From an uncultured Thermoplasmata archaeon (GTDB taxonomy: Archaea; Thermoplasmatota; Thermoplasmata; Halarchaeoplasmatales; Halarchaeoplasmataceae), in the NCBI GenBank assembly GCA_964399335.1, contig CAYNQI010000005.1, positions 1-50,942 of the forward strand: 50,942 bases of DNA, written 5' to 3'. This document shows positions 8,677 through 39,112 of this stretch, piece by piece. The position numbers were made by a program, and so were the translations under genes. Below the pieces are notes generated by a model. That model searched no databases. It was not told the DNA's origin and saw only the letters and a list, made by a program, of their open reading frames with translations. Position 1 is the stretch's first letter; every line of letters starts with the position of its first letter.

Positions 8677-9459
8677 TTAATTTTCTTCTCTATAAAATTT
8701 TCCTTTTCCACCTTTCTCTTCTATTTTACTAAGTGCTTTTTTGGCTTGATTTCTGAATGTTTCTTCTGCAACTTTATAATCATCGGATTGAATATTTATT
8801 CGGTATTTTGGTGAAGCAATATAATCCACATCGATTTTTGCATCCTCAGTATCTTCGAATGCTGAAAGAGCATATTTTATGTCTTCAATTCCCGAAGGGT
8901 TAGGTGAAGTCAATTCGATAAATCCTGAAATGTTTATGTAGGGTGGTTTGATGTTGTCTTTTGCGACCTCTATGAAATGTTCAATCCAATCCCCATCAAA
9001 TCCTTTATTTTCTAAAATCTTTGGATGGATGGTTGTTTCTTCAAAAGCTTTGTATAAACTTCCAAATTCTTCACTAAGTTCCAAACCAAATTCGTCATAA
9101 CATCTATCTATATCCCAGTCTAATTCATCGGCCACTATTTGTAATAATTTTTCGGCTTTTTTCTGGTTTTTCCATGCTTGTATTTTTTCTCTTTTCTGAT
9201 GTTCGTTAACTTGCTTTAATGAAAGATCAATATGGCCCTTTGAACGATCAACATTCAAGACTTTGCAAACTCGTTTTTCGTCTTCTCTAATATAATCTTT
9301 AATTCTCTTAACCCATCCAGAAGAAATCTCAGAAATATGGATAAAACCTTCTTTATTATCATATTCTTCAAGTTCTAGGAATGCACCAAAATCTTTAACT
9401 GATTTAACGTAACCTATAACCAATTCACCATCACTGGGCCATTCATAATCCTCTGCCAT
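8677..9459 (-). CDS. eif2a: Translation initiation factor 2 alpha subunit (aIF2-alpha)
   Basis: S1 domain (WPSDGELVIGYV...GFIHISEISSGW) and position after L44e-S27e. Confidence 0.97.
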   Translation of the reverse strand: MAEDYEWPSDGELVIGYVKSVKDFGAFLELEEYDNKEGFIHISEISSGWVKRIKDYIREDEKRVCKVLNVDRSKGHIDLSLKQVNEHQKREKIQAWKNQKKAEKLLQIVADELDWDIDRCYDEFGLELSEEFGSLYKAFEETTIHPKILENKGFDGDWIEHFIEVAKDNIKPPYINISGFIELTSPNPSGIEDIKYALSAFEDTEDAKIDVDYIASPKYRINIQSDDYKVAEETFRNQAKKALSKIEEKGGKGKFYREEN

Positions 9460-25600: not shown

Positions 25601-26452
25601 ATGCAGCAATATTTATTAAGATACGGGGAAATCGGGACAAAATCTCAAAATATTCAACGCAATTTTATCGATATATTGATACAAAATATAGAGAGGATTT
25701 TTTTAAAAAATAAAAAAGAAGTTTTTATTGAAAGAGAAAGGGGGAGAATTTTTCTTTTTACAGAGAATGAAAATGTACACCTTTTATCACGTATCTTTGG
25801 AATAGTTTCCTACAGCCCAGTTATCGAAACTTCTAGTGATATATCTAGTATGAAAGATGAGGTAAAAACAATAGCATCAAACCTATCGGGTACATTTGCT
25901 GTGAGAGCTCGAAGGGTTGGGCAACATGACTATACAAGCCCTGAAGCAGCTGGTGAAGTAGGGGCTGCTATATTGGAAGAGAATCCTAATCTGAAAGTAA
26001 ATCTTGATAATCCAGACAATGAGATTTACATTGAAATACGGAATGAGAGGGCATATATATTTGGGGAAATATTTAAAGGGCCAGGGGGTCTACCTTTAAG
26101 CAGTCAAGGAAAGATAGCTTCTTTTATTGAAGACCGAGATGATTTTTTAGCTACATGGTTGATGATGAAACGTGGAGCAAGGGCATATGTTTATCATACG
26201 CCAAATACGAATTGGATTGATGAATTAGATAAATGGGATCCCAATCTAATCATTATGGGTGAAGGAAATAAGAATGAATTTTTGGAACAAGATTTTCCAG
26301 ATGAAGTACAAGGAATAGTGTTAGGAGAAACATTAAAAGATGCTCAAGCAATCAGCCATGAATTACCTATATTTAGGCCGATAATAGCTTTTACAGAAAA
26401 AAGAATAGAAGAGAGCATAGAATTGATTGATCTATTATCTGATCTAAATTAA
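25601..26452 (+). CDS. ThiI-like THUMP protein with a degenerate PP-loop (probably inactive as a thiouridine synthase)
   Basis: LLRYGEI..KS, a THUMP domain, GPGGLP..SQGK and WLMMKRG are present. SGGxDS is replaced by FIEDRDD, the protein contains no Cys, and it is only 283 aa. Confidence 0.8.
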   Translation: MQQYLLRYGEIGTKSQNIQRNFIDILIQNIERIFLKNKKEVFIERERGRIFLFTENENVHLLSRIFGIVSYSPVIETSSDISSMKDEVKTIASNLSGTFAVRARRVGQHDYTSPEAAGEVGAAILEENPNLKVNLDNPDNEIYIEIRNERAYIFGEIFKGPGGLPLSSQGKIASFIEDRDDFLATWLMMKRGARAYVYHTPNTNWIDELDKWDPNLIIMGEGNKNEFLEQDFPDEVQGIVLGETLKDAQAISHELPIFRPIIAFTEKRIEESIELIDLLSDLN

Positions 26453-26598: not shown

Positions 26599-27696
26599 GT
26601 GTTCCTTTTGAATTTTTCTTCTAATAAAAAAGGTGTTTTGCTTTACAACAAGATACACAGTATACACCGTGCTTCCATGGTGAGCCGTGAAAACCCAGAA
26701 CGATTAGAAAGGGGATACAAATTCATCAAAAACAGATCTGATATTTTGAAATATTATGATTTATTAGAAGACTATGATCCTGCTACAAAAGAAGAATTAT
26801 TAAAAGTACACGAAAAAACTTATGTAGATTTTATCGAAGGATATTGTAAAAAGGGGGGTGGTTTTTTAGGCGATTCTACATATGTTCAAAAAGGTTCTTG
26901 TAAAGCTGCTAGATATTCTGCAGGTGGAGCTATTGAATTATGTAAAAGAGTTCTAAAAGATTATCAAACTGGTTTTGCGTTGATCAGACCTCCGGGTCAT
27001 CATGCATTACCAGATAATTATGGTGGATATTGTTTGTACAATAATGCTGCAATCGCAGCTCGTTGGCTTCAAAATAATAAAAAAAGAAAAATCATGATAA
27101 TCGACTGGGACGGACATGCTGCTAATGGTACGATGAGAACATTTTACTCTGATCCAGATGTTTTAACAATCTCTATCCATCGAGATCCTGAGGGATTTTA
27201 TCCTCATGATGGTTTTTCTCATCAAATAGGAAAATCTGCAGGCAGAGGTTATAGTGTAAATATCTGTTTACCTAGAGGTTCAGGAGATACTGAATTGAAG
27301 AAATCTTTTAATGATGTTGTTTTCCCATTGGCTGAAGTCTTTGATCCTGATTTTGTTATTGGATGTAATGGATTTGATTCACATCAATCCGATTCTGTCG
27401 TTGGTTTAAACTACACATTAGACAGCTATTATTTCATATCGTCTGAACTTGGAAAACGTTATAAAAATAAATTAGGTTTAGTTATGGAAGGAGGATATGA
27501 GAAATTTAATGGAAAATTACTTCACGTTGTATTATCGGGTCTTTTAGGAAGAGAGAATCCTTATGGGGGGGTTGAACCAAACTTATCCTCATCGATTATC
27601 CAGAAAGGCAGTGTGTGTAAAGATACTATGGAAGAAATAAAAGAATTGAAATCTATTTTAAAGGAATTTTCCTTAGGGAGTAAAGCTTTCACATGA
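26599..27696 (+). CDS. Zn-dependent histone deacetylase / AcuC family deacetylase
   Basis: ENPERL, RPPGHHA, GYCLYNN, IDWDGH..NG, GFDSH..D, MEGGY. The start may be the TTG at 26608. Confidence 0.92.
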   Translation: MFLLNFSSNKKGVLLYNKIHSIHRASMVSRENPERLERGYKFIKNRSDILKYYDLLEDYDPATKEELLKVHEKTYVDFIEGYCKKGGGFLGDSTYVQKGSCKAARYSAGGAIELCKRVLKDYQTGFALIRPPGHHALPDNYGGYCLYNNAAIAARWLQNNKKRKIMIIDWDGHAANGTMRTFYSDPDVLTISIHRDPEGFYPHDGFSHQIGKSAGRGYSVNICLPRGSGDTELKKSFNDVVFPLAEVFDPDFVIGCNGFDSHQSDSVVGLNYTLDSYYFISSELGKRYKNKLGLVMEGGYEKFNGKLLHVVLSGLLGRENPYGGVEPNLSSSIIQKGSVCKDTMEEIKELKSILKEFSLGSKAFT

Positions 27697-27992
27697 GGAT
27701 AGAAAAAAAAATTTATCGGTTAAGGAAAAACGAAAGAATAGAATCAATTGAGATTTTGAAAGAAGAGAAGAGAATTTATTATAGTTATAATTATCAAATA
27801 TTAAAAGATAAAGAATGGAATACCTCCGTGAGATGGGATAATTTTCAAAAGAAACCTCATGTTGATAGTTATGATGAAAATGGTAACTTATTATACTCTT
27901 CTCCTACTAGGGTTAAAAGTTTGAAAGAAGTGCTTGAACTGATTGATATATTTGGAAAAAACATTGTTACCATGGATATAACTAAACTATGA
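27693..27992 (+). CDS. DUF6516 (TumE)/DUF7718-like small protein, candidate TA toxin
   Basis: YSYNYQ...VRWDNFQKKPHVD resembles the R-[YW]-D-N...P-H motif. Sits directly upstream of an HVO_A0114-like HTH gene. Confidence 0.55.
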   Translation: MRIEKKIYRLRKNERIESIEILKEEKRIYYSYNYQILKDKEWNTSVRWDNFQKKPHVDSYDENGNLLYSSPTRVKSLKEVLELIDIFGKNIVTMDITKL

Positions 27993-27993
27993 G

Positions 27994-28437
27994 GTGACAA
28001 CCATCAAAATAAAATTAAGGAAAACCCTTGATGAGATTGATAAAAAAGAGATTATAGATCATATATCCAAAGAATTCGGTTCTATTGAACGGTTAGAACA
28101 AAAAGTGTCTAGAACTGGTTGTAGAGAACCAAAACTAGTAGATAAATTAATGATCCTCAAATATCTTAGAGAAGGTGCAGAATATAAAACAGAAAGGATT
28201 TTATCTTCAGCCAAACCCCTTTCTGTGATAACTCATAGAAGAGTTTCTTTAATGGAGCATCTTTCAAAAGAAAAGGTAAGATCTATTCGGGACTTAGCGG
28301 ATGAATTGAACAGAGATTATAAGAATGTTTATGATGATGTAAATGTTCTTTTTGAAAATGGATTACTAGACTTGGAAAAAGATGGTAAAAGGAGAGTTCC
28401 AACTCTAAATGCAGATAACATATTGATAGAATTTTGA
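27994..28437 (+). CDS. HVO_A0114-like winged-HTH protein, candidate antitoxin/regulator
   Basis: SIRDLADELNRDYKNVYDDV..L...GL.....G....P....D.I.IEF. GTG start. Confidence 0.75.
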   Translation: MTTIKIKLRKTLDEIDKKEIIDHISKEFGSIERLEQKVSRTGCREPKLVDKLMILKYLREGAEYKTERILSSAKPLSVITHRRVSLMEHLSKEKVRSIRDLADELNRDYKNVYDDVNVLFENGLLDLEKDGKRRVPTLNADNILIEF

Positions 28438-28448
28438 AAAATCATGAT

Positions 28449-28517
28449 TTACATTTACTAATTATACCATATAAACATCTACATATACTGGCTATTACAT
28501 TTATATTTTATACCATA
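28449..28517. repeat. Two 23-bp direct repeats (TTACATTTA-N4-TTATACCATA), period 46 bp
   Basis: 28449-28471 and 28495-28517, identical at 19 of 23 positions. Confidence 0.75.
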
Positions 28518-28540
28518 GTATTATTTAGCATTATTATATC

Positions 28541-28555
28541 GAAACCTTTTTAAAT
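28541..28555 (+). promoter_or_regulatory. BRE-TATA promoter of the 28589-35303 operon
   Basis: GAAACC-TTTTTAAAT, about 35-45 nt upstream of the TTG at 28589. Confidence 0.55.
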
Positions 28556-28588
28556 GATTATGTACTCTACATATCCGGTGTATCCTCT

Positions 28589-29110
28589 TTGAAGGCTCAA
28601 AAGGTCGATGATGTTAAGTTCGAAATAGAAAATCATCATACTGATTTAAAATTTGATATATTGAAAAAAGAAGGTGGATTATTTTTATCTTTATCTAATT
28701 TGTTCTTTAGAAGTGATGAGAAATGGTATGAGATACCTTTAGAAAAATTAGAGAAGATCGAGATTATTCAAAAAAACCCTCCAAGGTTGGAATTTAGAAT
28801 CCCCTCAATGAAGATCACGGTTATGGGTAGTTATGCTGAGAAATTATTGGCCCTAAGACATCTTCTTTTACCTTATATTAATGAAGAAAGTGAAAAAGAA
28901 GAACCCTTGTTAGCCGTTTTAAAATTATGGGGTCTTGGTATCAATGATATTAAAGCGATCTCTGATTTAATAGGGTACGATGAATCTAAAATAGAAGAAT
29001 TAGTTGAAGAGGCTAATGATAAAGATCTTATTAAAAATAACGTAATTACCGAAAAAGGTAAAAAAGCACTAGAAGATGATGGAGATTTTTTGAAAGCATT
29101 GGAGGTATGA
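28589..29110 (+). CDS. Hypothetical protein: PH-like N-terminal domain plus C-terminal winged HTH
   Basis: Beta-rich N-half (WYEIPLEKLEKIEI...LEFRI) and a wHTH-like C-half (IKAISDLIG...LI....ITEKGK). TTG start. Confidence 0.55.
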   Translation: MKAQKVDDVKFEIENHHTDLKFDILKKEGGLFLSLSNLFFRSDEKWYEIPLEKLEKIEIIQKNPPRLEFRIPSMKITVMGSYAEKLLALRHLLLPYINEESEKEEPLLAVLKLWGLGINDIKAISDLIGYDESKIEELVEEANDKDLIKNNVITEKGKKALEDDGDFLKALEV

Positions 29111-29114
29111 CAAG

Positions 29115-29990
29115 GTGAATAAAAAAGGCGGATTGGCAAAGAAGATGGCCTCATTAGGTAAACTAACTAAATTGGAATCCGCAATTAATGCAGCTATTGA
29201 GTCATCTAAAGTTCCTGAATATGAAACAAGGAAATTGCTAAAAGCTAGAACATCGAGTCAGGCTAAAAATACTGCTGTTTTTCAATTTATGAGAAATTTG
29301 TTCTCCGAGATAGGTTTAGGAGTATTAACCCTAAAGAAAAAAGATAATTTTAAGATCGTTCTTGTGATAAAAGATAATAAGATTAAAAACCTATATCCCG
29401 ATGTAAAAGACAAGAAAACCTGTTACATAATTTCAGATGCCTTAACTGACTTTTTCACAGAGGATTTGTGTATCCCTGCTGATGTTAATGAAGTTACATG
29501 TACAAATGCAGGAGATGATGTTTGTACTTTTAAAGTAGATCTTCAACCTTTAGCGGTATATAAGATTGCACTTGATGAAATTGATAATAAGATAATCGAT
29601 GAAGTAGTCAAAAATAATACATCAAATGAAATATCAGAAAACCTAAATATTCCTGAAGAAAAAATTGAATATAGACTTGATATATTAAAATCATATCATA
29701 TCCTTAATACTGATTTATCATTGACTAAAATTGGGCAGACATACCATAAATATGGTCAAAGTGTAGTAAGTGACATATCTGATCAAAAAGAGCCTCCTTG
29801 GAAAACTATGTCCGAGATCTCTCAGGTGATCGCCGATTCGGATTCTTTAGCTGAAGCAATTAGTAGTAGTGTATCGGATGAAGAAGAGGAGATAGAATCA
29901 TCTGAAGTAGTAAATCTAGCTAGCGAGGCAGAAAAAAGTAAGAGTTTCGCTCAATTAGTTTCAAAACAACTTAAAAAAAATGAAAAATAG
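29115..29990 (+). CDS. V4R-domain protein with a C-terminal winged HTH and acidic tail
   Basis: Classic V4R signature C(YII)...EVTC.NAGDDVCTFKV, followed by SNEISENLNI...IEYRLDIL....L.LTKIG. Confidence 0.75.
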   Translation: MNKKGGLAKKMASLGKLTKLESAINAAIESSKVPEYETRKLLKARTSSQAKNTAVFQFMRNLFSEIGLGVLTLKKKDNFKIVLVIKDNKIKNLYPDVKDKKTCYIISDALTDFFTEDLCIPADVNEVTCTNAGDDVCTFKVDLQPLAVYKIALDEIDNKIIDEVVKNNTSNEISENLNIPEEKIEYRLDILKSYHILNTDLSLTKIGQTYHKYGQSVVSDISDQKEPPWKTMSEISQVIADSDSLAEAISSSVSDEEEEIESSEVVNLASEAEKSKSFAQLVSKQLKKNEK

Positions 29991-30013
29991 TAAAAATATA
30001 AAAAAATATCAAG

Positions 30014-30895
30014 GTGAAAAAAATGGTCAATAGAATAGAAACCGGATTATATGGAGTTGACCAGCTTGTGGAAGGTGGTCTGATTGAAAATTCCGCTATA
30101 ACTGTGGTAGGAGCAAGTGGTACTGGTAAAACAACTTTTGCGGTACAATTTGTTATGAAAGGAATTGAAAAAGGTGAACAGGCACTTTTTGTAACACTTG
30201 AAGAATCCCCAGAACAGATAATGGATGAAGCAGAGATGATGGGCTGGGATATGAGAAAGTATCATGAAGAATCTCTATTCTTTATACATTTGAGTGGACA
30301 AAACTTTAGAGAGATGATAGAGGAACAACTTCCAAAATTAGTTCAGGCTAGGAAAGATTATGACATCAAAACTAGAGTCGCTATAGATCCGTTAACGCCA
30401 GTAATTTGGTCTACAAAAGATAGATTAGAACAAAGAGAATTGATTGAAAAATTGTTTAGGCCTTTAAAAGAACTTGGAACGGTTATGGCTACTGTAGAAG
30501 AACATTCCAAACCTGGAGAGATTATCGGATCGGATGTTCTTTTACCGATATATCTATCGGACGGTGTGTTCCATTTAGAGTATTATCCTGTTGGAGGTGC
30601 CTTTAATAGAACCTTTAAAATAGTTAAAATGAGAGGTACCAATCATGGTGAAGGATTATACCCTTATGTGTTTGTTAGAGGGGCCGGTGTTATTGTTAGG
30701 TCTTCACCAGTAGAGATGACGGAAGATAAAAAAGAAAGTTATGATGAATCCTTTGATGATGCCTTACAAACTGCCCAACATAGAGACCTGCCCGATACGG
30801 TTATCGATAAGGTAAAAACAATGAAAGAACAATGGAACTATGACTATCCCCCAGATGAGATATTAGATATCATGCTTTCCTCTTATAAAAAATAA
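30014..30895 (+). CDS. KaiC-like / RAD55 family ATPase (single domain, C-terminal extension)
   Basis: TGLYGVDQLVEGG, Walker A GASGTGKT, VTLEE, AIDP, IVKMRGT.H. Confidence 0.9.
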   Translation: MKKMVNRIETGLYGVDQLVEGGLIENSAITVVGASGTGKTTFAVQFVMKGIEKGEQALFVTLEESPEQIMDEAEMMGWDMRKYHEESLFFIHLSGQNFREMIEEQLPKLVQARKDYDIKTRVAIDPLTPVIWSTKDRLEQRELIEKLFRPLKELGTVMATVEEHSKPGEIIGSDVLLPIYLSDGVFHLEYYPVGGAFNRTFKIVKMRGTNHGEGLYPYVFVRGAGVIVRSSPVEMTEDKKESYDESFDDALQTAQHRDLPDTVIDKVKTMKEQWNYDYPPDEILDIMLSSYKK

Positions 30896-30950
30896 TGAGT
30901 TGATTACAGTGTGTCCCCCACCTGGTAATAAGAAACGATTGGATAGAAGG

Positions 30951-31712
30951 ATGGAGGCAGAAAATGTCTCCCAACTAAAATACATGCTTGAGATGGAACT
31001 AAGTAATCTTCGCGAAAGTGCAGAAATAGATTTAACTTTATTTATTGGTGTAGGTGGTAGGATTTTCGCCACATCAATACCTGAAGATCTTAATCCCGAT
31101 CAGTATCGATTATTAAGTACTTTTAAAGGTAATCTATCTAATCTTTGCAGTAAATTGAAAGGTGAGAATCTAGAAGTTTCAATAGAACGATGGAAATCTG
31201 GTATGGCAATAGTTTCTGCGGTTGGCGACAATTCATTTCTTGCATCTCTACTCACGAAAAAATCTGAGATACGTGAGATGGGTAATAAGTTAGATGAGGT
31301 TGTTAAAGCATCTACTGTTTTAAAACATATATTTGAACAGAAGAGCTTTAATGATGAAGAAATAAAAAAATACCCGGAGGAAGTTCAAGAAGAACTAAAT
31401 CGTTTATCACGTCAGCTTTTTGTTGAACGTTTTACTCATACTAAGAGTTATAAGAAAAATGAGGAAATCTTAGAATTCATGAAGGGAAAAATTAAGGGTG
31501 CTATCGGTGTAGGTCAACTTGATCAAATCGTCTCGGTAACATTCAATGAGATGGGAACTTCTGCCCCTTATATGGAAGATGATATGTGGTACGATTTCTT
31601 AGAAAAAGTAGTTGATGATCATTTGCGTTCTATAGTAGGAGATATCCAGGCTGAACAATATAAAAAACAATGGAAAAAAGAATTAGAAAAGAAGCTAAAA
31701 AGCATCTTATAA
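30951..31712 (+). CDS. Roadblock/LC7 (MglB/profilin-like) domain protein with a helical C-terminal extension
   Basis: ELSNLRESAEI..TLFIGVGGRIFATSIP...VSIER..SG.AIVSAVGDNSFLASL fits the roadblock alpha-beta pattern. Start moved to ATG 30951. Confidence 0.6.
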   Translation: MEAENVSQLKYMLEMELSNLRESAEIDLTLFIGVGGRIFATSIPEDLNPDQYRLLSTFKGNLSNLCSKLKGENLEVSIERWKSGMAIVSAVGDNSFLASLLTKKSEIREMGNKLDEVVKASTVLKHIFEQKSFNDEEIKKYPEEVQEELNRLSRQLFVERFTHTKSYKKNEEILEFMKGKIKGAIGVGQLDQIVSVTFNEMGTSAPYMEDDMWYDFLEKVVDDHLRSIVGDIQAEQYKKQWKKELEKKLKSIL

Positions 31713-31731
31713 TTAAAGGTTTAAAATATAT

Positions 31732-33474
31732 ATGTCTAATAATAATACTTTCGAAAAAGGGGATAATCGACCCATTAAAGGACAAACAGATTCAGATAGG
31801 ATCGGTGGAGAGATAATTAATACTTTAGAAACTATTGAAAGTGATTATAGTCGTTTCAAAGATACCATCAACAATCTAAAAAATAACCTCCAGAATTTTA
31901 TGGAAAATACATCCTATGAACTGGGTGAGGTTAAGCAAAAGACTGAACAAAAAGCTGAGAAGCAACTTGTAGAAGAAAAGGTAGAAGACGTAGAGGAAGA
32001 TATATTCGATGTTGATGAGCGCTTAAATGAAGTCATGCGAGAGGTAGGTTTTGGTGAAGAGATAGAAGTTTCCAATATTCCACCAATACTTCTTGAAGAT
32101 ATTTATCAAAAAATTTTGGATGATTTAGTCCATGAGTTAAGAGAAAATCTTGGTAACCATGAAGCAAATCAGATAATTCAAAAAGAACTAGAAAATATGA
32201 GGATGCGAACTAGTGGAAGTGAACTATTTCAATATGATAGTCGAGATATTAACATCCGAAATCTAGTTACTAGCATAGAAAATAATCTTATATCACCAAA
32301 ACAGATACACAGTACCTTCCTAGAACTAGTACAAAAGCTGAGCGAAAAGATGCCCAATTATAAGCCAAGAAATTTTAGGGCCATGGTTAACGCAGAAGGA
32401 TTAGAATTCGTTATTAAGAAGACAACTTACTTACTTAATAAGACTTCCAATATAGAAGATAATTTACTAGAAGTAACGAAAAATGTTGAAAAATTAGGAA
32501 CAGATCTAGATTCTAAATTTTCTCATTTTAATTCAAGGCTATCAGATATCGAGGAAAAAATTGAAGAAGAGATTACCAACCAATATACTGATTTAGACTA
32601 TAGACTTTCTGAAATGGAAGAAATGTTAGATGAATTTAATTTTAATCAAATAACTGAGGGTTTTGAAGAGATAAGAGATAAAAATGAACAGATGGAAGAG
32701 ATGATAAAAAATAAAACATCTGATTTAGAAATGAATTTATCTATTGTTCAGGATGACATTGAAAATCTTAAAAAAGATATGGTTGACGAACCAATGACTG
32801 AGGATGAAAGATTCGTCTTTTATGCAATACCTGATGATGGGGCCACCTTTAACAAGCTCGAGAAAGAAATTGGGAAAGAAGTAGACGATATCCAATCAAA
32901 GTTAGACAGTTTATTAGAGAAAGGGAAAGTAAAAGATGAAAAAAGAGGACGATGGACCGTATATGTTAGGTCCGAAGAAGGATCATCTGAAGAAGAGATA
33001 CAGCAAGATGAAGAAGAAATTTTAGAAGAATCTGAACAAGATGATCAAGAATTGAGAGATTCTGAGGAAGCGGATGAAGAACCTATAGAAGAAATCACCA
33101 AGGAAGATTTTTCAGGTATAATATTTGATGAAGCTTTTACGAAAGTAACTGAAGAAAAGAGTGTAGATGAAGGATTAGAAGAGGAATCTGATGAATTAGA
33201 AGAGGAATCTGATGAATTAGAAGAGGAAATTGAAGGATTAGAAGAGGAATCTGATGAATTAGAAGAGGAATCTGATCTTACTGAATCGGAGAAACTTATT
33301 ATAGATGAGATAACTGAAGATGGATGTACTATTCATCATTTAGATAAACAATTTGAGGATTTAGATAAATCTGATATTGAAGAAATTTTAGAAAAACTTA
33401 TAGAAAAAAAAGAAGTATCCACAACAAAACGTAATAGGTGGACTATTTACTTAAAACAAAAGGAGGTAGAATAA
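31732..33474 (+). CDS. Coiled-coil protein with two C-terminal winged-HTH domains separated by an acidic linker
   Basis: Two similar modules: MTEDERFVF...G.TF..L...L.SLLEKGKV....RGRWTVYV and LTESEKLII...G.TI..L...LEKLIEKKEV....RNRWTIYL. Confidence 0.7.
   Translation: MSNNNTFEKGDNRPIKGQTDSDRIGGEIINTLETIESDYSRFKDTINNLKNNLQNFMENTSYELGEVKQKTEQKAEKQLVEEKVEDVEEDIFDVDERLNEVMREVGFGEEIEVSNIPPILLEDIYQKILDDLVHELRENLGNHEANQIIQKELENMRMRTSGSELFQYDSRDINIRNLVTSIENNLISPKQIHSTFLELVQKLSEKMPNYKPRNFRAMVNAEGLEFVIKKTTYLLNKTSNIEDNLLEVTKNVEKLGTDLDSKFSHFNSRLSDIEEKIEEEITNQYTDLDYRLSEMEEMLDEFNFNQITEGFEEIRDKNEQMEEMIKNKTSDLEMNLSIVQDDIENLKKDMVDEPMTEDERFVFYAIPDDGATFNKLEKEIGKEVDDIQSKLDSLLEKGKVKDEKRGRWTVYVRSEEGSSEEEIQQDEEEILEESEQDDQELRDSEEADEEPIEEITKEDFSGIIFDEAFTKVTEEKSVDEGLEEESDELEEESDELEEEIEGLEEESDELEEESDLTESEKLIIDEITEDGCTIHHLDKQFEDLDKSDIEEILEKLIEKKEVSTTKRNRWTIYLKQKEVE
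33175..33279 (+). repeat. In-frame 21-bp tandem repeat (about 5 units) encoding LEEESDE heptads
   Basis: TTAGAAGAGGAATCTGATGAA exact in units 1, 2 and 4; unit 3 is variant and unit 5 ends CTT. Confidence 0.9.
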
Positions 33475-33475
33475 A

Positions 33476-34105
33476 GTGTTAGATGTAGCTTTAGTGTCTT
33501 TGATAAAAAATATGAGCGAAAAAGCTGGTATTGAAGGAGCAATTCAATACTGGTCAAGAGTAGGAGAAAACCTAGCCAAAAGGATCGGTGAAGAAGCCTA
33601 TATGGGCTGGCCTTCTTTCAACGTTGCGTTAAAGGAAGGGAGAACAGCGTTTTCTATAGAGGGCGATGTCACTGCATTGACAGACCTGGCAATAACTGAT
33701 GTAGATGGTGATGTTGTAGGTTACATATATGCGTTAAAAGAGTGTGTTTTTACACCTACAATTAAACGAATAAGATACAGTGTAGGAGAGATTCCAGACG
33801 CAGACAGAGCAGTAGCTGAGGAATACAACAACACTGTTCAAAATACTGCGACTTGTAATTTCTGTGTTATCCATCAGAAATTCAGATCCGAAGTATCGAA
33901 GAACATAACTGTTGAGAACCAGCCTTTGGAATGTGTTCAACTGGCAAACCGTGGATTTAGAGGAGATACAAAGATAAACAGAGTAAGCTTAGATCGTATA
34001 GGTATTAATCCAGAGTACGTCAGAAGTCTTTTGAGAAATTATGCCTGTGTATATGGTATACTAATGAAAGGAGCTAGACTCCGAGGTAGCGAGGAGGATG
34101 AATAA
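33476..34105 (+). CDS. Divergent V4R-superfamily protein (paralog A)
   Basis: Shares Cys/His motifs with the next gene (ECVF, VAEEYNNTV, CVIHQKFR, RNYACVY). GTG start. Confidence 0.55.
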   Translation: MLDVALVSLIKNMSEKAGIEGAIQYWSRVGENLAKRIGEEAYMGWPSFNVALKEGRTAFSIEGDVTALTDLAITDVDGDVVGYIYALKECVFTPTIKRIRYSVGEIPDADRAVAEEYNNTVQNTATCNFCVIHQKFRSEVSKNITVENQPLECVQLANRGFRGDTKINRVSLDRIGINPEYVRSLLRNYACVYGILMKGARLRGSEEDE

Positions 34106-34107
34106 AT

Positions 34108-34740
34108 ATGAAAGAAGATCTATATGATGACCAATATAAAGCGAAGTTAGGAAGACACAATCCATTTGTTGATGTAGCAGCATATCTTTTCTTGGAAGAC
34201 ATAGGAGATAAACAGGGTGCAGCCGGTATGAACAATTATTTGATGAGCCTCGCAACATCTTTAGCTAAAAGCATGCCTAAAGAGGAATACAGTAGTTGGG
34301 ATGATTTCATGGAAAGCTTACTGAAAGGCGAATCTATAATATCAGCCTTTGAGGACGTACATTGCCCCACTGAGAATTGCGTCGTCACCGAAACTTGTCC
34401 TTTTACTGAAGGTTGGCAAGAGTATACTAAAAGAATCGGTGAATTTGCAGATATCCATAAAGAGGTTGCAGAGTATTACAACTCTACTGTGAAACCAGGG
34501 GCGGTAGATTCACAATGTATTATACATCAGACATTTAGAAAAGCAGCTGCACAGAGGATTAAGGTTGCAGGCAAAACTGTAAAATATGCTCAGATAGAGG
34601 CTGTTACCCCTAATGCTGATGAAAAACGAGCACCCAATGAATGGTTACCGATATTACTAGATAAAGCAGATGTTACTGAAACTGAATTGAATATGACTAT
34701 GCGGAACAATGACTGTGTTTGGATATTATATGCTGAATAA
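34108..34740 (+). CDS. Divergent V4R-superfamily protein (paralog B)
   Basis: TCPF, VAEYYNSTV, CIIHQTFR, RNNDCVW. Confidence 0.55.
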   Translation: MKEDLYDDQYKAKLGRHNPFVDVAAYLFLEDIGDKQGAAGMNNYLMSLATSLAKSMPKEEYSSWDDFMESLLKGESIISAFEDVHCPTENCVVTETCPFTEGWQEYTKRIGEFADIHKEVAEYYNSTVKPGAVDSQCIIHQTFRKAAAQRIKVAGKTVKYAQIEAVTPNADEKRAPNEWLPILLDKADVTETELNMTMRNNDCVWILYAE

Positions 34741-34754
34741 GATATAAAAGATGG

Positions 34755-35303
34755 TTGTTTAACTTGGAAGTCCTGAGAACCCACAGGAATAGAAATTATA
34801 TCCAGCTTACGGAACCTGAAGACGTAGATAGGTTCGTAATAGATGAAATAGGGGGAGCAAGTTTTTCCCTTCTTTATGATCTAGGGATCCAGGATTACAA
34901 TAAAACCTTTAAAACATGGTTAAGGAAGTTCCCAAGACCTATATTTATAATATGCGCAGAAAACAGAGAGATAATAGGCTGGGTATATGGAGAGGAATGG
35001 ACAGAATCTGCTTTAGATGGTGAACCGGTATATGTATTGAGAACAATAGAAACAGCTATTGGAGATAGAGGTGCAGGTATAGGTTATAGATTATTAATCC
35101 TTATGGCATTAGAAACTCCTGGATATTTGATAACAAAGCCGATCAATGAAAGAGCTAGAAAATTTTTTTTAAGGAATAAGTTTTTGGATAAAGATACTAT
35201 GGATAATCCTTCCATAGATCTACAAAGTTACCCTGGATACTTGATATTACCACCATATAGAAAACGTAAATTGATCGATGATGAGGATCAGTATTTTGAT
35301 TAA
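34755..35303 (+). CDS. GNAT-family N-acetyltransferase
   Basis: Acetyl-CoA motif A (IET...DRGAGIGYRL) and N..A.KFF (PINERARKFF). TTG start. Confidence 0.78.
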   Translation: MFNLEVLRTHRNRNYIQLTEPEDVDRFVIDEIGGASFSLLYDLGIQDYNKTFKTWLRKFPRPIFIICAENREIIGWVYGEEWTESALDGEPVYVLRTIETAIGDRGAGIGYRLLILMALETPGYLITKPINERARKFFLRNKFLDKDTMDNPSIDLQSYPGYLILPPYRKRKLIDDEDQYFD

Positions 35304-35305
35304 TT

Positions 35306-35815
35306 CTAATATTTTATATGATACTCACAAACTCCTTCTTCAGAATTTTGTATTATTATTGAACCATGTTTATTAGTACTCTCGAGTATACCTTCAAGGA
35401 TTCCTTTAAATGTAAGACATATTAACTCGTCATTTTCTGGTTTTTTTAAATGCACTTCGATGTTTCCTTCAGTACCTGTCACTATAAGTTCTCCAAAGTC
35501 ATAGATTTCTTCATATTCCTCTTCAATTTTTTTAGTAATTTTAAAAGGGGTATCATGTCTTACAATCCAAGAAAGATGACCTAAATTGCCTATCAAATAC
35601 TTACCGGCCACTTCAATATATTTCTCTCCTTTGTTTTTTTTGATCCAATTTAGAATGGATACCTTAATCTTGTGAGGATAGTATTTTCCATCTTTTATTT
35701 TATCATTGATACCTATTTCTTTAAGACACTCTTCTTTTCCAAATCTTCCCCATTTCATTTTGATGAAAGATAAATAACTATTGATTACACAACCACGTAT
35801 TTTTCTTTTATCCAT
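35306..35815 (-). CDS. H-NOX/V4R-like hypothetical protein
   Basis: IRG.VI.SYL.FI...WG..G, YYP, AG.Y....LG, C..FKGILEG.L, CEYHI.Y resemble the heme-NO-binding/4VR-type fold. Strongly Lys-rich. Confidence 0.55.
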   Translation of the reverse strand: MDKRKIRGCVINSYLSFIKMKWGRFGKEECLKEIGINDKIKDGKYYPHKIKVSILNWIKKNKGEKYIEVAGKYLIGNLGHLSWIVRHDTPFKITKKIEEEYEEIYDFGELIVTGTEGNIEVHLKKPENDELICLTFKGILEGILESTNKHGSIIIQNSEEGVCEYHIKY

Positions 35816-37783: not shown

Positions 37784-37856
37784 AACATCCTTAACAAAAC
37801 CCTTTCCTTAACCTAATCTTTTTAATAGTATAACGTATTTTATGGTCCTAGATAAT

Positions 37857-38246
37857 ATGGCATGGGAACAAGACGAGATACGGAACCTAAAGGAAAATAG
37901 ATATTTAGTAATAGATGAAGAGCCATGTAAAATAAAAAAAATCGACGTTTCAAAACCAGGCAAACATGGTGAAGCAAAGGCTAGAATTGAAGCGATTGGT
38001 ATCTTTGATGGGAAGAAACATAGTATGGTAAATCCAGTCACTCATAAAGTTAAAGTCCCTATCATTGATAAAAAGAAAGGTCAGGTTATAAGTTTATCAG
38101 GGGATGAAGCTAAAATAATGGATCTTAATGATTATAATACGTTTAACATCGCTATTGATGACGATGAGATACTTGAAAACATTGAACAGGGCCAGGAAGT
38201 TAATTACATGACTGCTATGGGTAGAAAAAAGATAACTAGAGTATAA
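37857..38246 (+). CDS. eif5a: Translation initiation/elongation factor aIF5A
   Basis: Hypusine-site motif SKPGKHGEAK. Start moved to 37857. Confidence 0.97.
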   Translation: MAWEQDEIRNLKENRYLVIDEEPCKIKKIDVSKPGKHGEAKARIEAIGIFDGKKHSMVNPVTHKVKVPIIDKKKGQVISLSGDEAKIMDLNDYNTFNIAIDDDEILENIEQGQEVNYMTAMGRKKITRV

Positions 38247-38269
38247 TTTTATTTATATATATCTATCAT

Positions 38270-39112
38270 ATGTTTGCAGGAGCAAAATCTTCTTATGAAG
38301 AATCAAAATTTGTTATATTAGGTGTTCCTTTCGATAAAACATCTTCTTTTAGAGTCGGGTCTTATCAAGGACCCGATGCTATTCGTAATGCCTCCTTTTG
38401 TTTTGAACCGTACATGATGGAATACGGTCTTTCTTTGTCAGATATTGGGATCCATGACAAAGGAAATCTACAAGATTATGAAAATGTTAAGGATCTGGGT
38501 AAAGATCTAGAACAGGCGATCTCGAAAATTTTAGATGATGGTAAAGTTCCGATTGTTCTAGGTGGAGAACATTCTATTTCATATTTTACGGTCTCAGGTT
38601 TTAAAAATAAATTCGAGAAAATTGATGTTATAGTGCTCGATGCACATTTAGACTATAGAGATGAATATGAAGGCAATAAGTATAGTCATGCTACTCCTGT
38701 GAGGAGGATATCTGAATTAGATTTCGTAGAAAATTTAGTCGTTGGAGGTGTGAGATCGATGTCTAAAGAAGAGAGTCAATGTGATGACATTAGTTACATT
38801 ACTGCTGATAATTTTGACAGTGTTGAATTATCAAACATATTTGATGAAAATAATCCTATTTACTTATCTATAGATATGGATTTGTTAGATCCTTCATATG
38901 CCCCGGGAGTAGGTAACCCAGAACCATTCGGTGTAGAGCCTAGAAAGATAAAAAAGCTAATAAAAAGATTGTCTCATTTGATTGTAGGTATGGATATCGT
39001 AGAAACAAATCCTAAATTTGATGTAGGAGAAATAACCTCGAATCTTGCTGCTCGATTTGTATATGAGCTTTTAGGGGCTAAACAATCTAAAAAAAATAAA
39101 AAATGGTATTAG
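38270..39112 (+). CDS. speB: Agmatinase (ureohydrolase family)
   Basis: GVPFD.T.SFR.G, GGEHS, DAHLD, SIDMD.LDP..APGVG.PEP. Adjacent to aIF5A. Confidence 0.92.
   Translation: MFAGAKSSYEESKFVILGVPFDKTSSFRVGSYQGPDAIRNASFCFEPYMMEYGLSLSDIGIHDKGNLQDYENVKDLGKDLEQAISKILDDGKVPIVLGGEHSISYFTVSGFKNKFEKIDVIVLDAHLDYRDEYEGNKYSHATPVRRISELDFVENLVVGGVRSMSKEESQCDDISYITADNFDSVELSNIFDENNPIYLSIDMDLLDPSYAPGVGNPEPFGVEPRKIKKLIKRLSHLIVGMDIVETNPKFDVGEITSNLAARFVYELLGAKQSKKNKKWY

Follow-up and report, generated by a model that had tools for sequence, protein, structure and literature searches.

A co-inherited KaiC/roadblock/V4R-fold gene cluster with a coupled GNAT/HDAC pair in Thermoplasmatota archaea

Classical two-component systems are few in archaea, where KaiC-like ATPases have been proposed to act as signalling hubs; to our knowledge, hardly any archaeal KaiC hub comes with a defined parts list. 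Here we describe a gene cluster that includes a KaiC-like ATPase gene and lies in a 50,942-nucleotide stretch of DNA (hereafter the window) from contig CAYNQI010000005.1 of an uncultured Thermoplasmata archaeon. The cluster is one co-conserved unit. It most likely comprises eleven vertically inherited genes arranged in two adjacent operons, one encoding an HDAC, a TumE-like protein and a winged helix-turn-helix (wHTH) protein, the other encoding eight proteins termed o1–o8. It thus offers such a parts list, eleven genes in a fixed order.

Gene content of the locus

The genes and the promoter features upstream of o1 are listed in Table 1. A preliminary reading made from the letters and open reading frames (ORFs) alone, here called the sequence-only reading, had placed eight same-strand genes at 28589–35303, separated by 1–23 bp; these coordinates are exact in the ORF map, in which the intergenic gaps from o1 to o8 measure 4, 23, 4, 19, 1, 2 and 14 bp. 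Its calls of a KaiC-like ATPase, a V4R protein with a wHTH, a GNAT and an HDAC are backed by profiles, and those of a roadblock-like protein and two V4R-like paralogues by predicted folds (Z 15 and Z 5–8, respectively). The ORFs it had left as unknowns turned out to have regulatory rather than housekeeping folds, namely roadblock and V4R/Bet3-like ones. In line with the same reading, profile scans of the cluster ORFs detected no histidine kinase, receiver or archaellum domains. The host metagenome-assembled genome (MAG) measures 1.57 Mb and is 80% complete; among named relatives, it stands closest to 'Candidatus Saliniplasma' and to further Thermoplasmata MAGs recovered from soda-lake and hypersaline sediments.

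Table 1. Features of the cluster and of the region upstream of o1, with positions in the window.
Feature	Position	Strand	Description
HDAC ORF	26599–27696	+	365 aa; class II-like Zn-dependent deacetylase
Small DUF7718/TumE-like ORF	27693–27992	+	99 aa; 4-bp overlap with the HDAC stop codon
HVO_A0114-family wHTH ORF	27994–28437	+	147 aa; 1 bp after the TumE-like ORF
AT-rich spacer	between 28437 and 28589		151 bp; from the wHTH gene to o1
Box 1	28454–28471	+	TTTAC-N8-CCATA
CTGG	28488–28491	+	between the two boxes
Box 2	28500–28517	+	TTTAC-N8-CCATA; direct repeat of box 1
Predicted core promoter	28540–28554	+	like a TFB recognition element (BRE) and TATA box; CGAAA + TTTTTAAA; ~25 bp downstream of box 2
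o1	28589–29110	+	wHTH protein with a possible PH-like N-terminus
o2	29115–29990	+	V4R + wHTH
o3	30014–30895	+	293 aa; single-domain KaiC-like ATPase
o4	30900–31712	+	roadblock/LC7 + C-terminal helical domain
o5	31732–33474	+	long coiled coil + two wHTH-like modules
o6	33476–34105	+	V4R/Bet3(TRAPPC3)-fold protein
o7	34108–34740	+	paralogue of o6
o8	34755–35303	+	GNAT acetyltransferase
c9	35306–35815	-	169 aa; convergent member of a V4R/H-NOX-superfamily family

Conservation and distribution of the cluster

Among 40 sampled relatives, with the host genome included in the count, o4 was present in 22, spread over at least ten families of the class. The order o1–o8 is retained wherever contigs allow, both in 20 neighbourhoods and in 64 further loci located with o6. 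Recurrence of this order in 64 loci of different species is far beyond chance, and the co-conservation on which the sequence-only reading depended is thus what we found.

Across full-length loci, o6 is 69–99% identical, with 68% in a single partial match, while the identity of the KaiC-like protein o3 is 52–89% and that of o7 56–98%. All three are conserved more strongly than aIF5A of the same loci, the identity of which is just 68–97% in the same family-level loci. Such conservation points to very strong purifying selection on o6 and its partners. The least conserved cluster member is o5, which also varies in length.

On a wider scale, the o6 gene was found in 13 of 401 evenly sampled Thermoplasmatota genomes, including families of other classes, and in none of the well-sampled families with complete genomes in that sample of the phylum. 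Within Thermoplasmatota, the system is ancient but patchy. One occurrence lies outside the phylum by its label: contig JAIMBL010000099.1 (locus L072) carries o6-o7-o8 at 68–75% identity and is binned in a MAG of a Leptolyngbyaceae cyanobacterium; the contig probably belongs to Thermoplasmatota and was binned wrongly.

The KaiC-like ATPase and its roadblock neighbour

The protein o3 matches the Pfam KaiC family (PF06745, 2.4e-46) and solved KaiC (3e-44). Its Walker A motif (GxSGTGKT), the tandem catalytic glutamates E63/E64, the Walker B residue D125 and the arginine finger R207 are invariant in 30 orthologues, and its C-terminal tail of ~65 aa contains residues conserved among orthologues.

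A genuine KaiC-family ATPase with intact catalytic residues raises the question of a KaiC-based timer, in which the ATPase, its partners, acetylation and autoregulation would form a slow oscillator or hourglass built differently from KaiABC. The antagonistic enzyme pair and the self-targeting promoter element described below, the latter permitting feedback, would suit such a device. However, o3 has one KaiC domain in its 293 aa, unlike the double-domain KaiC of the clock, neither KaiA nor KaiB gave a family match among the ORFs of the locus, and sediment archaea such as these hosts would have no evident use for a daily cue. We regard a timer as very improbable, and consider o3 below as the putative switch of a signalling unit.

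The AlphaFold model of o4 (predicted local distance difference test score, pLDDT, 84) contains a roadblock/LC7 domain at residues ~22–150, with the alpha-beta-beta-alpha-beta-beta-beta order of that fold, followed by a helical domain at residues ~150–270. The roadblock part superimposes on MglC with Z 15.3 (root-mean-square deviation 2.4, 115 aa), on MglB with Z 14.4 and on Asgard roadblocks with Z 11–14; Foldseek also returned MglB (6e-6). At the sequence level, Robl_LC7 (PF03259) was matched weakly in 4 of 40 orthologues (best E 0.0032), and the window copy had no Pfam match. No cognate small GTPase gene stands beside o4; its neighbour is the KaiC gene, and Ras-like genes lie elsewhere in the genome.

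The genome has other KaiC, roadblock and V4R genes as well. At L091:1969–3869, the end of a 129-aa roadblock gene shares one base with the start of a gene for a 504-aa GvpD-like KaiC-family ATPase, and this is a second roadblock/KaiC-family pair of the same genome. At L093:1838–3712 (minus strand), again in the same genome, hemerythrin, CBS-pair, V4R and roadblock genes form a same-strand cluster that looks like another small sensor module.

The o6/o7 family and its distant relatives

The model of o6 (pLDDT 90) adopts the two-layer alpha/beta fold of the V4R/Bet3/BcsD/H-NOX type. Its closest structural matches were BcsD (Z 8.1), the V4R domain of DmpR (6.8), Bet3 (6.4), the V4R protein MJ1460 (5.2) and Thor-TRAPPC3 (5.0), with the PoxR V4R sensor domain and H-NOX as further fold matches (overall Z 5–8), and Foldseek returned TRAPPC3 (1e-3, probability 0.99). 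Its paralogue o7 is ~27% identical to it and always adjoins it. The two share the motifs C-x-F, C-x-x-H-Q-x-F-R and R-N; in the alignment, conservation over the two paralogues reaches at least 90% at C90, C130, H133, Q134, F136 and R137.

No Pfam or NCBIfam match was obtained for o6, no model was found that covers the o6/o7 family, and the o6/o7 profile gave nothing significant against solved structures. Using hhalign, we found no sequence-level relation between the V4R domain of o2 and o6/o7 (probability 0.3%), nor between c9 and o6/o7 with either a single sequence or a profile. The V4R-type relationship is thus visible only at the level of fold and family.

Searched against 1.84 billion representative proteins, the combined o6 and o7 profile recovered 111 clusters only, which marks a small family. 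Its members include a KaiC ATPase with an o6-like C-terminal domain (P0076, hhalign 98.8%) and an Arf-family GTPase with an o6-like C-terminal domain (P0090). Stand-alone o6-like members occur in operons that contain roadblock and V4R/MetOD1 genes together with a gene for a Ras-like GTPase or with genes for KaiC-like ATPases (L085, L088). In Asgard archaea (Hodarchaeales, Thorarchaeota), the o6-like domain is C-terminal in proteins of 490–510 aa, encoded beside a wHTH-GTPase gene. The theme that recurs is a P-loop switch together with a roadblock and a V4R-fold protein, and the switch here is KaiC. Two further proteins, P0079 and P0093, had been considered as combinations of a pseudo-GTPase, a roadblock and an o6-like domain, and were set aside, their N-terminal part being unsupported.

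The GNAT/HDAC pair

The HDAC matches Pfam Hist_deacetyl (PF00850) at 2.3e-75, and its translation shows RPPGHHA, DWDGH, NGFDSH and EGGY, that is, the His-His dyad, the Asp/His/Asp zinc ligands and the catalytic tyrosine. Its closest solved relatives are the class II enzymes HDAC6, Hda1 and HDAH, ahead of acetylpolyamine amidohydrolases (1e-36). The assignment of o8 rests on Acetyltransf_1/7 profiles, with Acetyltransf_1 matched in 32 of 37 orthologues (best 5.7e-7); the window copy alone scores 18.2 bits, below the 20.7-bit cut-off, and RGAGIG, in the region of the acetyl-CoA motif, is visible in the protein. The best solved relatives of o8, weakly matched (E 0.014), are AcuA-type GNATs, which are protein acetyltransferases.

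The trio of HDAC, TumE-like and wHTH genes stands immediately upstream of o1–o8 in ~30 loci from several families, and in a divergent clade (L073, L074, L076, L077, L084) the HDAC gene lies downstream of o8 instead. Of the 22 relatives that carry o4, 21 also have an HDAC orthologue (at least 46% identity), against 0 of the 18 without o4, and this co-occurrence holds even where the HDAC gene is on another contig or 20 kb away; HDAC paralogues of at most 39% identity are found in 37 of all 40. In three MAGs (L074, L077, L084), a single ORF of 563–608 aa encodes an o8-type GNAT followed by an HDAC domain. Without a shared function, it would be difficult to account for both the rearrangement of the HDAC gene and its fusion to the GNAT. 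By four independent lines, namely adjacency, persistence after rearrangement, co-occurrence and natural fusion, the GNAT–HDAC link is real, as the sequence-only reading had supposed in pairing the two as a modifier. A related arrangement is seen at L076:11056–12786, where the HDAC ORF starts with ~240 additional aa that have no Pfam match and a separate GNAT gene precedes it; the added stretch may be left over from the GNAT–HDAC fusion or represent a step on the way to it.

The two enzymes might instead synthesise and break down an N-acetylated metabolite, for example an acetyl-polyamine or another acetyl-amino compound, which the V4R proteins would read, with KaiC and the roadblock protein merely transducing and no protein being acetylated. 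Proteins of the V4R/Bet3 fold do bind small hydrophobic ligands: DmpR/PoxR take phenols, and Bet3 takes palmitate (PMC10933270). Acetylpolyamine amidohydrolases form part of the HDAC family and are matched here at the E-value given above, a fused synthase/hydrolase would suit control of a signal level, and agmatinase and aIF5A are encoded downstream of the cluster. Yet the polyamine enzymes are more distant from the HDAC than are HDAC6, Hda1 and HDAH, which deacetylate protein lysines; o8 finds its best solved relative, a weak one, in the protein acetyltransferase AcuA; and the agmatinase/aIF5A neighbourhood is kept within the family only. We therefore think a small-molecule circuit rather unlikely, and favour reversible acetylation of a protein component of the system.

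Winged-helix proteins of the cluster

The sequence-only reading had described o1 as PH-like plus wHTH. The second half of this call holds, with wHTH-PRTase_assc matched in 25 of 31 orthologues (best 2e-8). The PH-like half is a lead only: for the N-terminal ~100 residues, the ESM Atlas pointed to CheF-arch (0.91) and, by structure, to GRAM/bPH domains (template modelling score ~0.45–0.5), and the o1 profile gave nothing significant against solved structures. In one divergent clade (L073, L075, L077), o1 consists of the N-terminal domain alone. The V4R domain of o2 was matched in 30 of 30 orthologues (best 7.8e-10), together with HTH families, the window copy by itself reaching 24.3 bits, below the 31-bit cut-off. 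Residues C103, C129 and C137 of o2 are invariant, and its best named relative is the C-terminal V4R domain of MsvR (5.9e-7). The third protein, o5, had been called a coiled coil with two wHTH modules, and a module duplication was indeed found: the two wHTH-like modules, both C-terminal, are 36% identical (E 2e-11), are separated by an acidic linker and match Penicillinase_R/TrmB weakly.

Four to five cluster proteins with wHTH modules, one of them (o5) a long coiled coil with two modules of DNA-binding type, could also be taken to work in chromatin or genome maintenance. DNA would then be organised or repaired by the RecA-superfamily ATPase together with o5, and GNAT and HDAC would modify a chromatin protein. 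KaiC does belong to the RecA/RadA superfamily, and a core cellular role would suit proteins as strongly conserved as KaiC and o6. Against this, o3 scores 2.4e-46 with KaiC and only marginally with RadA (3e-6), and o5, the most weakly conserved protein of the cluster, lacks an SMC/Rad50 ATPase head (Rad50 at E 0.06 only). The cluster has no linked gene for a nuclease, helicase or histone, and a system found in 13 of 401 Thermoplasmatota genomes is therefore not core genome maintenance. This explanation appears improbable to us, and we keep to the wHTH proteins as the putative regulatory output of a signalling unit.

A double-box element upstream of o1

The spacer between the two operons contains two direct-repeat boxes and a predicted core promoter, and o1 itself has GGTG 8 nt ahead of its TTG start codon. 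The CGAAA-N-T/A-rich box can be aligned across loci. Of 42 loci, 33 have the strict box pair, spaced by 46–49 bp, ahead of o1, and it is kept there although the proteins are only 30–45% identical. Six further loci carry a variant (TTCAA/TTCAT-N8-CCATA) in the same layout. The composite element is present at 39 of the 42 loci and has just 2 matches elsewhere in 877 kb, and the strict pair occurs once in the whole 1.57-Mb genome. The single box gave no regulon signal and occurs in the genome at chance level (11 vs 11 in the control), and the relaxed composite element is non-specific genome-wide (10 vs 7). Upstream of HDAC, no shared motif is conserved.

Lying ahead of the core promoter, at a position that would be typical of activator sites in archaea, the double box has the appearance of a dedicated operator. 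In the clade whose o1 homologue is without its wHTH half (L073, L075, L077), the boxes are missing too. This joint absence points to o1 as the binder of the boxes, as a single evolutionary event only. A different association, in which the boxes would track the adjacent HVO_A0114-type gene, was examined and rejected; loci without the adjacent pair carry the variant box and have the pair elsewhere in the genome.

The TumE-like/wHTH pair and the flanks

The small ORF matches Pfam DUF7718 (8.4e-6) and TumE (3.7e-4), and the wHTH ORF matches HVO_A0114 (5.8e-19) and an ArsR-type HTH (5e-5). With a 99-aa TumE-like ORF 1 bp ahead of a 147-aa wHTH ORF, the pair has the layout of a type II toxin–antitoxin (TA) module, and the sequence-only reading had called it TA-like. 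The TumE-like gene does not show the patchy, mobile, multi-copy distribution of TA genes. It is single-copy, is present in 21 of 22 operon-positive and 0 of 18 operon-negative relatives, and remains paired with the HVO_A0114-type gene when the two are dispersed elsewhere in the genome. Since it occurs once per genome and is inherited strictly with the operon, we treat the pair as an integral part of the system rather than as a mobile TA module, and correct the TA-like label accordingly.

The same evidence bears on the view that the locus is a mobile defence or toxin–antitoxin island lying beside signalling genes by chance. The pair at 27693–28437 does resemble a TumE toxin with a wHTH antitoxin, some defence systems do contain KaiC-like and wHTH proteins, and PADLOC gave weak wHTH matches. 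These PADLOC matches, at E 5e-6 or worse, concern wHTH segments, one P-loop region and one coiled-coil stretch, and no system signature was found among them. Strict co-inheritance of the single-copy pair, a gene order that is stable across the phylum, housekeeping flanks and a base composition equal to that of the surroundings largely refute a defence island, which we now find hardly credible.

The flanking genes encode flavodoxin, nitroreductase and a THUMP protein upstream and oligopeptidase F, aIF5A and agmatinase downstream. The 283-aa ORF at 25601–26452, the 'pseudo-ThiI' of the sequence-only reading, has ThiI ferredoxin-like and THUMP domains and gave no PP-loop/ATP-pyrophosphatase match. 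At 37842–39112, the aIF5A gene has an agmatinase-family gene directly after it, and the two are kept downstream of the cluster within the family only.

The convergent gene c9

Members of the c9 family match DUF2378 (9 of 21), HNOB (5 of 21) and V4R (4 of 21); the window copy has no significant profile match of its own, and a profile search against solved structures likewise returned nothing significant. The family is present in 2–6 copies per genome, often in tandem, as in G006:C7:16538–18819, where four paralogues follow one another on one strand; such arrays recur in several relatives. It occurs in 20 of 22 operon-positive relatives and in 3 of 18 operon-negative ones, and these three are 61–65% complete genomes of genera whose other members possess the operon. 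At the position next to o8, c9 is found within the family only, and the orthologue in the closest relative (L001/L022, ~8899–9236) is split with a stop codon and is apparently a decaying pseudogene. The sequence-only reading had let a convergent H-NOX/V4R-like gene close the cluster. Its assignment agrees with the family matches; its place in the cluster does not carry over, the position not being conserved outside the family and the gene coming from a multi-copy family, the presence of which nonetheless tracks the operon. As a lead only, c9-family proteins could be exchangeable V4R-type input modules.

A possible mechanism

We propose that the cluster encodes a cytoplasmic ATPase switch together with its sensors and adaptors, a system modified by reversible acetylation and regulating its own transcription. 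The biochemical roles in this proposal are ones we infer, and we put it at roughly even chances. In such a system, o3 would be a nucleotide-driven switch that hydrolyses ATP and possibly autophosphorylates. Together with a heterodimer of o6 and o7, o4 would form a regulatory platform that docks on o3 and sets or reads its state, a model patterned on the roadblock and Bet3 partners of small GTPases (MglA/MglB, Ragulator, TRAPP). Input would come through the V4R domains of o2, of o6/o7 and perhaps of free c9-family paralogues, which might sense a small ligand or redox through conserved Cys/His residues. The GNAT o8 and the HDAC would act as writer and eraser, reversibly acetylating a component of the system, and the acetyl mark could report acetyl-CoA status. 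Output would be the binding of DNA by the wHTH proteins (o1, o2, o5 and the HVO_A0114-type protein), at least one of which may act on the double box of its own operon promoter and so provide autoregulation or feedback.

The roles of V4R as sensor, KaiC/roadblock as switch and wHTH as DNA output would correspond to the circuit of sensor, switch, modifier and output outlined in the sequence-only reading. The co-conservation of the unit and the GNAT/HDAC link agree with that outline. Its description as self-contained is open to question, since KaiC, roadblock, V4R and Ras-like genes also occur elsewhere in the genome.

Several observations weigh against our proposal. The phyletic counts were taken among related genomes, which are not independent events, and so overstate the number of events. 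The conservation of o6 is so strong as to be unusual for a mere signalling accessory. A GNAT–HDAC fusion could equally serve small-molecule acetylation, and with five Ras-like GTPases in the genome, the partner of o4 may be a GTPase encoded elsewhere. The fold match of o6 is moderate (Z 5–8), with neither o6 nor o7 matching Pfam at E ≤ 0.1, and the fusion of KaiC to an o6-like domain (P0076) is known from one 1.9-kb metagenome contig.

On the other side, natural fusions, of KaiC with a V4R-like domain and of GNAT with HDAC, point to parts that work together. The cluster is also a rare prokaryotic case in which one regulatory module has an acetyltransferase and a deacetylase of its own. Its unique promoter element lends itself to gel-shift assays; because none of the hosts is in culture, tests must be heterologous.

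Comparison with known systems

The sequence-only reading did not recognise the combination as a described system, and our literature search likewise turned up no description of these eleven genes together. The broader idea is older: Makarova, Galperin and Koonin are reported to have presented archaeal KaiC-like ATPases as 'signal transduction hubs' in mBio in 2017. That hub idea is already published and is cited in PMC5847659 and PMC4858521. As in those hubs, a single-domain KaiC-like ATPase is found here among predicted sensor, adaptor and wHTH genes, without a histidine kinase or receiver. Unlike them, the cluster has a fixed set of eleven genes, a partner consisting of a roadblock plus a helical domain, a dedicated pair of V4R/Bet3-fold proteins, and a GNAT/HDAC pair that is co-inherited and in places fused.

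Among single components, o2 resembles MsvR, the redox-sensitive regulator of methanogens, in its V4R match (5.9e-7) and its three invariant cysteines, but it has the reversed order of V4R then wHTH, carries a long acidic C-terminal tail and scores far below the MsvR equivalog cut-off. In Bacillus subtilis, the GNAT AcuA and the HDAC-family deacetylase AcuC control acetyl-CoA synthetase. The pair described here is likewise an antagonistic GNAT and HDAC-family enzyme that are genetically coupled, with AcuA as the weak best solved relative of o8. In contrast to AcuA/AcuC, neither an AcsA target nor an AMP-forming ligase was found among the ORFs of the locus, and the pair sits in a KaiC/roadblock/V4R cluster, forming one polypeptide in some lineages.

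Roadblock and Bet3-fold proteins are the fold types from which the eukaryotic small-GTPase regulators Ragulator and TRAPP are built, and their prokaryotic counterparts have been discussed as forerunners. The roadblock domain of o4 matches MglC and MglB with Z 14–15, and in other archaea roadblock genes accompany the o6-like family and Ras/Arf-like GTPases, as in MglA/MglB and Rag/Ragulator (PDB 6izw, 3t12, 7cy1, 6ehr). Here, however, the adjacent NTPase is a KaiC of the RecA type, a hexamer-former, and not a Ras-like GTPase, and o4 carries an extra helical domain of ~120 aa. With Bet3/TRAPPC3 of TRAPP and with Thor-TRAPPC3, o6 shares the two-layer alpha/beta fold and an existence as one of two paralogues, like Bet3–Trs33, and it retains a Cys/His cluster like that of the zinc site in Thor-TRAPPC3 and PoxR, metal binding by o6 being putative. 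It differs in lacking sequence similarity to Pfam V4R or to o2, in its moderate Z of 5–8, and in the absence of a longin subunit or a Rab.

The V4R/Bet3/roadblock theme has been published for Asgard archaea (PMC10933270, PMC2253512). What the present cluster adds to the question of eukaryotic origins is a tie between roadblock and Bet3-fold proteins and a switch that is not a GTPase. We put forward, tentatively and with more doubt than confidence, that a roadblock and Bet3-fold platform controlling a RecA-type KaiC, its state set by a bifunctional acetyl writer/eraser, would represent an unrecognised class of archaeal signalling. If so, the folds known from GTPase regulators in MglA/MglB, Ragulator and TRAPP would already have been general regulators of NTPase switches in archaea.

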